DNA from: Escherichia coli
GTDB lineage: Bacteria; Pseudomonadota; Gammaproteobacteria; Enterobacterales; Enterobacteriaceae
NCBI RefSeq assembly: GCF_009931435.1
Contig: NZ_CP043414.1
Length of the DNA stretch: 64,000 nucleotides
Direction: 5' to 3' (one strand)
This document shows positions 7,134 through 60,749 of the stretch, piece by piece. The notes beneath the pieces were generated by a model, which searched no databases, was not told the origin of the DNA, and worked only from the letters and a program-made list of their open reading frames with translations. Position 1 is the first letter of the stretch. The number at the start of each line of letters is the position of its first letter. The translations under genes were made by a program, and so were the position numbers.

Positions 7134-7147
7134 CACAACCTCTCTAT

Positions 7148-7176
7148 AAAAAAGGTGCTACGGCACCTTTTTTATT
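7148..7176 (+). terminator. Rho-independent terminator of the cyo operon
   Basis: aaaaaaggtgc-tacg-gcacctttttt hairpin followed by a T-run, just after the cyoE stop. Confidence 0.75.
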
Positions 7177-25104: not shown

Positions 25105-25130
25105 GAAATGCCGGATCTTGTATCCGGCAT
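25105..25130 (+). terminator. Short hairpin immediately after the tsx stop
   Basis: gccggat-cttgt-atccggc followed by attt. Confidence 0.4.
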
Positions 25131-25162
25131 TTCAGATTGTTAACAACGTGCGCTTTGTTCAT

Positions 25163-35302: not shown

Positions 35303-35336
35303 AATAAAAAACCACGGGGCATCGCAGCCCCGTGGT
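35303..35336 (-). terminator. Rho-independent terminator of brnQ
   Basis: ccacggggc-atcgca-gccccgtgg hairpin flanked by an A6 run on the plus strand (T-run on the minus strand). Confidence 0.7.
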
Positions 35337-35356
35337 TAAAACAAATATTCAGTGAT

Positions 35357-37029: not shown

Positions 37030-37056
37030 GAAAATAAGCCAGCATCAGCTGGCTTA
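37030..37056 (-). terminator. Hairpin after the phoR stop
   Basis: gccagc-atca-gctggc stem followed by a T-rich stretch on the minus strand. Confidence 0.45.
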
Positions 37057-37082
37057 TGGCAATAAAAGATGACAAAGGCGGA

Positions 37083-56816: not shown

Positions 56817-57077
56817 TTACTGACGAGGATGCTTCAATAACTTCTTTACATAATCGCGCAGCAGCTCCGTATCGTCGTCAGGAATGCTGGCATCGGGCTT
56901 TACCTCGTAAAGTGCCCCCTCAACCTGATCAATCAACCGCTGTTGGTCATTTTGCGCCATATTACGAAGCATTGCAGTGACGATAATCTCCAGTGCTTCT
57001 ACCTGCGCGCACAGTTCTTTCGACTCTTCTTCTTTTTGGGCAAGCTTAAATAACAACTCAGCAATGAGATTTTTCAT
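56817..57077 (-). CDS. iraP: Anti-adapter protein IraP
   Basis: Track ORF, 86 aa. Confidence 0.92.
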
Positions 57078-57539
57078 GTCTGTATTTCCTTATCCAAAGT
57101 ATGGAGAAGTTAACATTATGCTTCACAACTTCATAGTGTCTGGAGGTAGTATTTTTATGACGAATGAAATACTTTGCGCAAATATTTTTTCCATATTTAT
57201 CAGCGAAACGTTTCTCTTATTTAAATAAGTAACCATACAAAGTATAGGTTTTTAATTATCAACCTTTATTATAAGTAAAAGTTATGAAATATATTCTCTT
57301 TGCTAACTTATAATTAAGAGAAAAAAACTCACTGCATGGCCATTTAAACCAGGAATAAATTAGCTTCCCGTTCATCATTTTTGTGATCTTGCGCACATCT
57401 TTGAGATAACGCACTTTCTTCACCAGTACGTTGCACACTTTGTCAGTAGAAGATTGCAACATTCTGTCAGAAGGCCGCGAATCCCCCGTTTTGTCGTGGT
57501 AATGTATGCACTTTGTGTTAGACGGGATAGGTTTTCAAG

Positions 57540-58634
57540 ATGGAAAAACTGCGGGTAGGAATCGTTTTTGGTGGTAAATCAGCGGAACATGAAGTGTCTT
57601 TGCAATCGGCAAAAAACATTGTCGATGCCATTGATAAAAGTCGCTTCGACGTTGTGCTGCTGGGCATTGATAAACAAGGGCAATGGCACGTCAGCGATGC
57701 CAACAATTATCTGCTAAATGCAGACGATCCTGCCCATATTGCGTTGCGCCCTTCGGCGACCAGTCTTGCGCAGGTGCCTGGTAAACATGAGCATCAGCTT
57801 ATCGACGCACAAAACGGTCAGCCATTGCCGACGGTGGATGTCATTTTCCCGATTGTTCACGGTACGCTAGGCGAAGATGGTTCCTTGCAGGGAATGCTGC
57901 GGGTCGCCAATTTACCGTTTGTGGGTTCTGATGTTTTGGCGTCAGCGGCCTGTATGGATAAAGATGTCACCAAACGTCTGCTACGCGATGCCGGGCTGAA
58001 CATTGCGCCATTTATTACCCTGACACGCACCAATCGTCAAAACATCAGTTTTGCCGAAGTGAAGTCAAAACTGGGGTTACCGCTGTTTGTAAAACCCGCT
58101 AACCAAGGCTCTTCTGTTGGTGTCAGCAAAGTAACCAGTGAAGAAGAGTACGCAATTGCCGTCGATCTGGCGTTCGAGTTCGATCATAAAGTGATCGTTG
58201 AGCAAGGGATCAAAGGTCGTGAGATCGAATGCGCGGTTCTGGGCAACGACAATCCGCAAGCCAGTACCTGTGGCGAGATCGTACTAACCAGCGATTTCTA
58301 TGCCTACGACACCAAGTACATTGACGAAGATGGCGCGAAAGTGGTGGTTCCGGCAGCCATTACGCCTGAAATTAACGATAAGATCCGGGCAATTGCCGTT
58401 CAGGCTTATCAAACGTTGGGTTGCGCAGGCATGGCGCGTGTAGACGTGTTTTTAACCCCAGAGAACGAAGTGGTAATCAACGAGATCAACACACTGCCAG
58501 GCTTCACCAACATCAGTATGTATCCGAAGCTGTGGCAAGCCAGCGGTTTGGGTTACACCGACCTGATCACACGTCTGATCGAGTTGGCGCTGGAGCGTCA
58601 CGCTGCGGATAACGCATTGAAAACCACAATGTAA
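57540..58634 (+). CDS. ddlA: D-alanine--D-alanine ligase A
   Basis: Track ORF, 364 aa. Confidence 0.95.
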
Positions 58635-58640
58635 TTTTTA

Positions 58641-58670
58641 AATGCCCAATAACTGTTATTGGGCATTTAA
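58641..58670 (+). terminator. Hairpin after the ddlA stop
   Basis: atgcccaataa-c-tgttattgggcat palindrome followed by ttaa. Confidence 0.5.
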
Positions 58671-58682
58671 GACTGTAAGATT

Positions 58683-58771
58683 GCCTGATGCGCTTTGCTT
58701 ATCAGGCCTACAAGATAATTGCAATATACTGATTTTGTAGGCAGGATAAGGCGTTCGCGCCGCATCCGGCA
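58683..58771. repeat. Pair of REP elements (BIME-like) after ddlA
   Basis: gcctgatgcgctttgcttatcaggcctac and gtaggcaggataaggcgttcgcgccgcatccggca. Confidence 0.8.
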
Positions 58772-58801
58772 AAAACAACGAGCACTTTGTCAGCCCCCAG
58801 A

Positions 58802-58834
58802 ACGCCCAATCCTCTGTTATTGGGCGTTTTCAGT
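58802..58834 (+). terminator. Hairpin plus T-run (plus strand) that spans the yaiZ stop codon
   Basis: cgcccaat-cctctgtt-attgggcg followed by ttttcagttt. Confidence 0.4.
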
Positions 58835-59029
58835 TTCTTCATCGCGACGACGAATAATCAGCCCCGCGAGCCAGAAACTAATCACCCACGTCACCAGACC
58901 AACGGCATAGGTCTGCCAACCTTTTGCTTCAAATCCCAGTAACCCCACCACGCCATTAAGAATGAATATCAGGCCAATGGCGAACGCATAGTAGTGCCAG
59001 TCACGGCGAATTTTTACAGGCAGACTCAT
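58817..59029 (-). CDS. yaiZ: Small inner-membrane protein YaiZ
   Basis: Start moved to MSLPVKIRRDWHYYAF, giving 70 aa, two predicted TM helices. Confidence 0.85.
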   Translation of the reverse strand: MSLPVKIRRDWHYYAFAIGLIFILNGVVGLLGFEAKGWQTYAVGLVTWVISFWLAGLIIRRRDEETENAQ

Positions 59030-59288
59030 GGCAGCTCCGTTAACGAAAAATAACATCTTCGCATAATCGATAACTTACGTCTGTGGGGTAGACAGCATTT
59101 CCCGTATCGTTAAAAAATTTAACTTAAAGTTACCTTTTTGTGACTCGTGACAAATATTCCCGCTTCGGGAATATTCCCAACATCAATTTACCATGATTCT
59201 GATATTGACAATCTTAATGACCTGTCAGACTTGCCATAAGCCGCTGGTATGACACCAGAAGAGAAGCAGATGACTTCCGGAGGTTTTT

Positions 59289-59597
59289 ATGGCTGATTTC
59301 ACCCTGTCAAAATCGCTGTTTAGCGGAAAATATCGCAATGCCTCTTCTACGCCTGGCAACATTGCCTATGCGTTGTTTGTGCTGTTTTGCTTTTGGGCTG
59401 GGGCGCAATTGCTGAACCTGTTAGTGCATGCGCCCGGCGTCTATGAGCGTTTAATGCAGGCTCAGGAAACAGGCCGCCCACGGGTGGAAATTGGTTTAGG
59501 TGTCGGTACCATTTTCGGGCTGATCCCATTTTTAATTGGCTGCTTCATTTTTGCATTAGTGGCGCTATGGCTGCACTGGCGACATCGCCGCCAGTAA
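59289..59597 (+). CDS. yaiY: Inner-membrane protein YaiY
   Basis: Track ORF, 102 aa. Confidence 0.88.
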
Positions 59598-59654
59598 GAG
59601 TAGGTTGTCAGATGCGGCCTAAAATGCCTTATCTGGCCTGGCGTTCCCTTTTGC

Positions 59655-60749
59655 TTACTGTTTCATACAACGCGCCCGCCGTTCGTCTACGCGCTTCGCA
59701 AACCAGGCCGTAGTCAGATTGCGGGTAATTTTCGGGCTTTCCAGTTGGATGCCGGGCAACATTTCGCGGGGTAGTGATCTACCCGTTTTCGCTTCGGCAA
59801 GTTGATAAACTTTCTTGTACAGCGCCGTCTCCTCAAAAGAGAAGCTGTCCCCTTTCTCTAACTGACGGCGAATTTCGCTGTCGCTCATCCCCAGTTTGCC
59901 TGCCAGTTTGCGCGTTGCCAGCTCTGTTTTCCCAGGTTCTTTACTGTCGTAACGAATTAAATCACCGTCCAGCGCCAGCTTCATGCCAGTGGCCTTACTG
60001 ACCGCGTTCTGAAAAGCGGCATTACGGCTGGCGTACCAGCCAGCGTTAAAATCGGCAAAACGGTATATCGGCGCGCTATAACTGGCGGGATAATTCAGTA
60101 AATGGTAAGTACCGAACCACAATCCGCCGCGGCGACTGAAGACTTCCTGACGGACTGTACCGTCCATTTTCCACGGATACCCTTTGGTATGCTGTTCGGC
60201 AAACGCAATGCTGACCTGCATCGGTCCACCGGTACGTACCGGATTAAGCGAACCAAACAGCGTCTGCCCCATTGGCACCATGCTGATCAAATCGTCAAAA
60301 ATCGCGCTTAATTGCTTTTCTGTACGCACAGAATCTAACCGCTCACTATAACTTTTGCCGTTTGGCGATTTGATTTTTAGCGCGGTATGAACCAGAAAAG
60401 CTGGGATGTACATCCGTTCGGCACGACGGTCAATCTCTTGCCAGGCGATCTTGCTTAAGCCTGGAACGGCCGGATCTGCCTGATAATTTGACTCCTGCTG
60501 CGCCACCGCCAGCACCGAGCAGACGTTTTCCAGCGTCGGTGCCAGCCCCTGACTTTCAAACGTGGTGGCAAGATCTTTCGCCCAGGCATCGCGGTCTTTC
60601 ACACTCGCGGGCATCTTCTGCCGCACGACGCTCGCCACATCTATCGCTTTTTCGCCCTTTTTCAACGGTTGCGGAGCCTGACTACTACACCCTGCTAAAA
60701 CCAGAACCGCCAATAACGAAAGCGAAGATAGATGATTGACGCGCGACAT
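59655..60749 (-). CDS. yaiW: Lipoprotein YaiW
   Basis: Track ORF, 364 aa; lipobox LAGCSS. Confidence 0.9.
   Translation of the reverse strand: MSRVNHLSSLSLLAVLVLAGCSSQAPQPLKKGEKAIDVASVVRQKMPASVKDRDAWAKDLATTFESQGLAPTLENVCSVLAVAQQESNYQADPAVPGLSKIAWQEIDRRAERMYIPAFLVHTALKIKSPNGKSYSERLDSVRTEKQLSAIFDDLISMVPMGQTLFGSLNPVRTGGPMQVSIAFAEQHTKGYPWKMDGTVRQEVFSRRGGLWFGTYHLLNYPASYSAPIYRFADFNAGWYASRNAAFQNAVSKATGMKLALDGDLIRYDSKEPGKTELATRKLAGKLGMSDSEIRRQLEKGDSFSFEETALYKKVYQLAEAKTGRSLPREMLPGIQLESPKITRNLTTAWFAKRVDERRARCMKQ

Follow-up and report, generated by a model that had tools for sequence, protein, structure and literature searches.

The window analysed here, a stretch of 64,000 nucleotides of Escherichia coli DNA, carries the genes phoA-iraP-ddlA-yaiZ-yaiY-yaiW-sbmA in the order known for Escherichia. 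Our interest is in the convergent pair ddlA and yaiZ. The coding sequence of ddlA (D-alanine--D-alanine ligase A) extends from 57540 to 58634 on the plus strand and ends with a TAA stop codon at 58632-58634, as given by the open reading frame and the RefSeq annotation of the identical record. On the minus strand, yaiZ (58817-59029, from ORF and RefSeq CDS) codes for a DUF2754 protein of 70 amino acids and has its TAA stop at 58819..58817. An in-frame ATG 27 nt upstream of the yaiZ start (59030-59056, minus strand) would give a 79-aa ORF, while RefSeq uses the 70-aa form.

Compared with strain MG1655, the nucleotide identity is 95.9% for ddlA and 97.2% for yaiZ. The E. coli strain 2017-02-2CC is 100% identical to the window at this locus, and an identity of at least 99% over positions 58540-59100 is found in only 16 of 5,429 matching E. 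coli records. The window thus derives from a divergent Escherichia lineage. The YaiZ protein is 99% identical in Escherichia sp. MOD1-EC7003.

Two hairpins, here termed A and B, are found downstream of the ddlA stop codon and flank a dispersed repeat of the BIME type. Hairpin B (58799-58830, plus strand) overlaps the end of yaiZ, and it is this structure that we interpret as the stem-loop of the ancestral ddlA intrinsic terminator, based on its sequence, a terminator scan, folding, a repeat search, covariation and the orthologous region of K-12. Its arms, aacgcccaat (58801-58810) and attgggcgtt (58819-58828), are 10 nt long, 100% complementary and separated by an 8 nt loop, cctctgtt (58811-58818), with ttcagtttcttc following the 3' arm. 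When G-U pairs are included, the stem comprises 12 pairs (58799-58830), 5 of them G-C, with a loop of 8, so that a stable, G+C-containing stem-loop as expected for an intrinsic terminator is present. In a terminator scan of region 57300-59700 it was the best site, on the plus strand. The RNA folds with -16.1 kcal/mol on the plus strand (z -5.1) and with -17.1 kcal/mol on the minus strand (z -4.7), and in both cases none of 200 shuffles was as good.

A preliminary description of this DNA had noted a palindrome followed by a run of T on the plus strand, and had called for folding of both strands; the arms are indeed exact, the T run occupies 58827-58830 (followed by cagtttcttc), and the RNA is stable each way. 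The same description placed the yaiZ stop codon inside the loop, which is correct for two of its bases (58817-58818), while the third (58819) already belongs to the 3' arm, which begins with it. In the yaiZ-sense RNA, the 5' arm of the hairpin consists of the final three sense codons (N-A-Q) plus the stop codon's first base, the plus-strand 3' arm reading AAC GCC CAA TAA, i.e. N-A-Q-stop, on the other strand.

Structures of this quality are rare. When a perfect stem (10 bp or more), a loop of 3-8 nt and a T-rich tail were required, there are 5 distinct sites on both strands of the 64-kb window, compared to a mean of 0.03 in 100 dinucleotide shuffles. The other four are located at 7147-7174 (plus strand), 25107-25131, 35310-35337 and 37034-37057 (all minus strand), and presumably represent the window's strongest intrinsic terminators. 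A search of Rfam 15 over 57000-60000, at E values up to 1, returned no curated family above its gathering score, and no match of any kind to hairpin B.

The two strands differ in what follows the stem. On the ddlA strand, this is the U-rich tail TTTTCAGTTTCTTC (58827-58840), which is identical to that of K-12 and corresponds to the antisense of YaiZ codons N-E-T-E-E (AAC GAA ACT GAA GAA). As GAA GAA ACT GAA codes for E-E-T-E in YaiZ, the U-tract lies opposite the codons of an acidic protein tail. The interruption of the U-run (UUUUCAGUUUCUUC) results from the need to encode E-T-E-E-N on the other strand. In the yaiZ direction, the sequence behind the hairpin is CUGGGGGCUGAC, which is devoid of a U-run, and therefore it does not qualify as an intrinsic terminator in that direction. 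The corresponding T-weights are 3.55 on the ddlA strand and 2.17 on the yaiZ strand, values which derive from our own d'Aubenton-Carafa-style decay and serve for relative comparison only, with no threshold applied. By its sequence, hairpin B would thus be an intrinsic terminator on the ddlA strand, with Rho independence being a prediction.

Experimental evidence on function comes from E. coli K-12. According to the alignment, 161 bases between the ddlA stop and hairpin B, made up of hairpin A and the BIME, are missing from K-12, where the hairpin starts 6 nt past the ddlA stop (TAA-TATTTT-AACGCCCGATAATATTCTTATTGGGCGTTTTCAGTTTC). The segment TAA-TATTTT-AACGCCCGATAATATTCTTATTGGGCGTTTTCAG brings the same 3' arm and tail as in the window directly behind ddlA, and the yaiZ stop is likewise embedded in the K-12 hairpin. 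From these correspondences, hairpin B is orthologous to the K-12 hairpin that follows ddlA immediately. For the latter, a Term-seq 3' end has been mapped at MG1655 position 399790 (minus strand), with 24,033.8 reads in LB at OD600 0.4 (Adams et al. 2021, eLife, PMC7815308, Supplementary file 1), and it is classed there as “primary” for ddlA and “antisense” to yaiZ. The sequence around this end is ACCACAATGTAATATTTTAACGCCCGATAATATTCTTATTGGGCGTTTTCA|GTTTCTTCAT, given in context as ...TTATTGGGCGTTTTCA|GTTTCTTCAT, so that the RNA ends in ...GGGCGUUUUCA-3' (PMC7815308). In MG1655 coordinates, position 399790 is the A of the UUUUCA that adjoins the stem, which is where intrinsic termination classically takes place, and it equals position 58832 of the window. 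In vivo RNA 3' ends within the U-tract are thus on record for the K-12 orthologue only. The curated end is present in only one of the three growth conditions (PMC7815308). No 3' end on the yaiZ strand is listed in any of the three K-12 Term-seq conditions, the sole occurrence of “yaiZ” in Supplementary file 1 being the ddlA end (PMC7815308). The supplements of the TERMITe paper contain no ddlA or yaiZ entries, and a full-text literature search for yaiZ returned mostly unrelated word matches.

The same study reports Rho termination regions obtained by DirectRNA-seq with and without bicyclomycin (PMC7815308, Supplementary file 2), in a table limited to the strongest Rho position within each 800 nt. 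One region, at MG1655 399675 (minus strand; Rho score 4.68, p 9.8e-11), is antisense to yaiZ and about 115 nt past the ddlA end; some ddlA-sense RNA must therefore pass the K-12 hairpin. Another, at 400341 (plus strand; Rho score 4.66, p 2.9e-11), is antisense to ddlA and about 0.5 kb past the yaiZ stop, and therefore yaiZ-strand RNA runs past the hairpin in K-12. Accordingly, in K-12 the hairpin ends the ddlA RNA, with Rho as a back-up behind it, and RNA from the yaiZ strand is stopped by Rho within antisense ddlA. The 3'-end table holds many other “primary, antisense” entries (PMC7815308), and terminators which overlap the end of a convergent gene are common.

We thus favour, with a probability of roughly 85%, the interpretation that hairpin B and its U-tail are a conserved intrinsic terminator of ddlA which overlaps the end of the convergent gene yaiZ. 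It is supported by K-12 Term-seq, which places the primary ddlA 3' end at UUUUCA. An RNA polymerase transcribing ddlA would form the stem-loop, pause on UUUUCA and release the transcript at about 58832, the position expected for this strain on the plus strand by homology with the mapped K-12 end, and the ddlA mRNA would then overlap the yaiZ coding sequence by 16 nt. The additional 161 bp would have moved the terminator from 6 nt to about 165 nt past the ddlA stop in this lineage. Terminating ribosomes may interfere with a terminator close to a stop codon, and at this distance hairpin B should escape such occlusion. Hairpin B would also be the last barrier before antisense transcription of yaiZ. 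In the opposite direction it is not expected to act as a terminator, and RNA from yaiZ should extend through the BIME and hairpin A and into antisense ddlA.

The preliminary description had attributed to the plus-strand hairpin the ending of ddlA transcripts, and the K-12 end at 399790, behind the same 3' arm and tail, bears this out. Its wording that read-through transcripts are concerned is apt for the window, where hairpin A and the BIME precede hairpin B, but not for K-12, where this is simply the ddlA terminator 6 nt past the stop. The description had also made its proposal depend on RNA 3' ends mapping to this site on one strand or the other: an end on the ddlA strand is mapped in K-12, and none is listed for the yaiZ strand. 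Its further suggestion that the hairpin caps the 3' end of yaiZ is unsupported, in view of the missing U-run, the lack of a yaiZ-strand Term-seq end in K-12 and the Rho region at 400341 (plus strand).

The stem is also conserved beyond E. coli. Scanning with YaiZ, using one genome per species, we obtained 80 Enterobacteriaceae loci, and ddlA and yaiZ are convergent in all of them. One homologous hairpin enclosing the yaiZ stop occurs in Citrobacter (with a gap of 21-25 nt between the genes), Salmonella (25 nt), and in K-12 and Escherichia sp. E1V33 (23 nt). In Enterobacter, Leclercia, Kosakonia and others, the ddlA and yaiZ stops overlap or are 0-3 nt apart and there is no intergenic hairpin, so that both transcripts must end inside the opposite gene. 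The same arrangement, with overlapping stops reading TTAA or stops 0-3 nt apart, extends to Pseudescherichia. Two Trabulsiella loci, three of the Citrobacter amalonaticus group and one further locus possess unrelated-looking G+C-rich hairpins whose 3' arm contains or adjoins the yaiZ stop, which is TTA when read on the ddlA strand. It seems that the geometry of a stop codon within a terminator arm arose more than once at the ddlA-yaiZ pair.

Covariation was assessed in an alignment of 25 Escherichia and Citrobacter sequences, including copies of hairpin A. Salmonella rows were excluded from the counted alignment as MAFFT misplaced their 5' arm, although the hairpin is still visible at the Salmonella loci. 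In this alignment, 93% of the cells form standard pairs and 4 of the 12 pairs change on both sides, an example being a C-G pair in Escherichia copies of hairpin B which is U-A in Citrobacter and in the window's copy of hairpin A. None of 500 shuffles matched the observed pairing or covariation score, and slid registers gave 33-45% pairing. The covariation stems mostly from few splits (Escherichia vs Citrobacter, copy A vs copy B) and thus from few independent events, so that it is supportive of the stem but not overwhelming. Both the 3' arm and the tail encode protein on the opposite strand, and it is therefore the non-coding 5' arm that follows the coding one. The tail is U-rich in the Escherichia and Salmonella orthologues, while in those of Citrobacter the hairpin is kept with weaker or interrupted U-tails, e.g. 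GGGCATCCTTGACATC. As the Citrobacter hairpin is kept despite its weak U-tails, the stem may be conserved for more than termination.

Hairpin A (58638-58670), a perfect 16-bp palindrome, starts 3 nt past the ddlA stop and is absent in K-12 and E1V33. It folds with -19.7 and -18.1 kcal/mol on the two strands, and again none of 200 shuffles was as good. Its tails are weak on both strands (UUUAAGAC and UUUAAAAA, with a T-weight of 2.5 each), as only UUU is found in either direction, and then purines. Hairpin A would thus cause partial termination at best, and we infer that the polymerases passing it and the BIME would stop at hairpin B, at about 58832. It is a near-copy of hairpin B (AATGCCCAAT..ATTGGGCATT vs AACGCCCAAT..ATTGGGCGTT), with one compensated pair which is T-A in A and C-G in B. 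The two are in direct orientation, 161 nt apart, and flank the BIME. An Rfam match of hairpin A to potC (22.2 bits vs a gathering score of 44, E 0.39) was treated as chance.

In the BIME itself (58677-58794), two inverted REPs (approximately 58683-58711 and 58737-58770) are accompanied by a long linker and by a right flank that is conserved. This dispersed repeat has at least 40 matching places in nearly every E. coli genome, and it aligns with BIMEs at cobB-ycfZ and beside a copy of IS200C, but hairpins A and B do not. Thus, the dispersed, many-copy character of REP/BIME elements applies to the neighbouring element at 58677-58794 and not to the two hairpins. The idea that hairpin A is part of the mobile BIME could be ruled out, because the dispersed copies share only positions 58677-58794. 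Sub-threshold Rfam matches to naRNA4 on the REPs (31.4 and 23 bits vs 59.5) reflect REP similarity and do not indicate a family for hairpin B. A further REP-like match to naRNA4, also sub-threshold (27 bits), lies at 59573-59638 on the minus strand, between the convergent genes yaiY and yaiW. Rho-mediated attenuation of transcription by BIMEs has been reported.

In most E. coli genomes, the region is matched in two pieces, spanning 402 bp vs 561 bp for the long allele. The long allele, with hairpin A and BIME, was found in 222 of 5,425 complete E. coli genomes (approximately 4%), and also in several cryptic Escherichia lineages and in E. whittamii. E. albertii possesses the BIME and hairpin B without hairpin A, and its ddlA stop is TGA. 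The difference between the long and the short form is bounded by the direct repeat TTATTGGGCGTTT. The single hairpin of K-12 has an A-type loop (AATATT..., as in E69 and E. whittamii) joined to the right flank of B. The short allele could thus be either ancestral or the result of a deletion by recombination between the two copies. Hairpin B pre-dates the BIME, as it is present in Citrobacter and Salmonella, where there is no BIME. E. coli is well known to be polymorphic for the presence of BIMEs between genes (Bachellier et al. 1997, cited after PMC3333891).

We also considered that the near-identity of A and B is the footprint of the arrival of the BIME. It would have inserted in or beside the terminator hairpin with duplication of a target of about 13-30 bp, so that both a ddlA-proximal hairpin and the YaiZ C-terminus with its stop were kept. 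We regard this as unlikely. Short-range direct repeats bracketing repeats do not occur elsewhere in the window, the A/B pair being the only case. The presumed mobilisers of REPs, IS200/IS605-type Y1 transposases, are described as acting without target duplications (PMC3333891), so that a reproducible duplication of hairpins at BIME insertions would imply a different mechanism, by replication or template switching.

Several other interpretations of hairpin B must be weighed against an intrinsic terminator of ddlA. It could be a two-way element, which terminates ddlA and, in the other direction, either terminates yaiZ (e.g. assisted by collision) or provides a 3' stem-loop to which the yaiZ mRNA is trimmed back and by which it is then protected. 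The yaiZ-sense RNA folds equally well (-17.1 kcal/mol, z -4.7), trimming of a transcript as far as the base of the hairpin would leave the yaiZ ORF intact, stop codon included, and the retention of the hairpin in Citrobacter despite weak U-tails is consistent with a second role. Stem-loop-dependent bidirectional terminators between convergent E. coli genes have been reported, as outlined in a preprint (bioRxiv 10.1101/2022.10.23.513370, citing Ju et al. 2019), and the location itself, between and overlapping convergent genes (ddlA on plus, yaiZ on minus) with the yaiZ stop in the hairpin, is the one expected for them. However, coincident 3' ends on both strands were not found in K-12 Term-seq, a weak negative as low expression of yaiZ could explain it. 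Also, the hairpin lacks a U-run in the yaiZ sense (CUGGGGGCUGAC; T-weight 2.17), the Rho region at 400341 (plus strand) in antisense ddlA implies read-through, and, with the stop enclosed in the hairpin, any ribosome that translates yaiZ to its end must unfold this structure. A two-way element is thus doubtful; hairpin B might conceivably be an exonuclease barrier which protects the complete yaiZ ORF after termination by Rho.

A barrier to exonucleases might even be its only function, if ddlA transcription is ended downstream by Rho and the mapped 3' end arises by processing. With Term-seq alone, genuine termination cannot be told apart from trimming that halts at a hairpin; 3'-5' exonucleases trim RNAs which Rho has terminated (Adams et al., PMC7815308), and a Rho region does exist about 115 nt downstream in K-12 (399675, minus strand, score 4.68, p 9.8e-11); weak U-tails in Citrobacter would also fit. 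But the K-12 end lies at UUUUCA directly after the stem, i.e. at the canonical position for intrinsic termination, and the tail is U-rich in both Escherichia and Salmonella, which makes a pure barrier improbable. When a REP element is no more than about 15 nt away from a stop codon, it reportedly slows termination or triggers ribosome rescue. By analogy, the hairpin might mainly tune translation of yaiZ, as its stop is at the junction of loop and arm and this placement is conserved across three genera. We think that this is very unlikely, as the geometry follows from two convergent genes sharing a spacer of 23 nt, and as the many Enterobacteriaceae with overlapping stops and no hairpin indicate that yaiZ needs none. 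A functionless palindrome, due to chance or a by-product of yaiZ codon usage, might be suspected because the entire tail and one half of the stem are part of a coding sequence. It can practically be dismissed, as only 0.03 such sites per 64 kb are expected from shuffles, the two arms, coding and non-coding, co-vary, and an RNA 3' end has been mapped at the K-12 orthologue.

An intrinsic terminator of ddlA is an element of a known kind, and the ddlA 3' end at the hairpin is already contained in the published K-12 map. With the K-12 terminator hairpin B shares the 3' arm (TTATTGGGCG), the tail (TTTTCAGTTTCTTC), the overlap with the yaiZ stop and the location at a convergent pair. It differs in position and loop, as the K-12 hairpin is 6 nt past the stop and has a loop of the AATATTC type, whereas hairpin B is about 165 nt past the stop, behind hairpin A and the BIME, and has a loop of the CCTCTG type. 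Like canonical intrinsic terminators, hairpin B possesses a G+C-rich stem base, a short loop and a U-run 3' of the stem, with the 3' end of the orthologue in the U-run, but its U-run is interrupted and the top of its stem is A-U rich. It resembles the bidirectional terminators of convergent pairs, as these are outlined by Ju, Li and Liu (2019) and in the preprint of Wang et al. (10.1101/2022.10.23.513370), in that one stem-loop lies between or overlaps convergent genes. Unlike those, the K-12 hairpin has a 3' end on one strand only, with Rho acting further on along the other strand, and upstream of hairpin B there is no A-run but CCCCCAGAA. With REP/BIME elements that act as 3' stabilisers or attenuators, it has in common its palindromic nature and its location in a 3' untranslated region, where it adjoins a true BIME, but hairpin B is locus-specific and not part of a dispersed unit.

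These results place the likely 3' end of the ddlA mRNA in this lineage at about 58832, which has little import beyond annotation. One sequence would serve two purposes here: opposite the U-tract an acidic protein tail is encoded, and changes in the coding arm of the stem are followed by the non-coding one. With the long allele in about 4% of the genomes and the short one for comparison, E. coli offers a natural pair of alleles, by which the effects of a BIME and of the distance from the stop codon on termination and antisense read-through may be seen.
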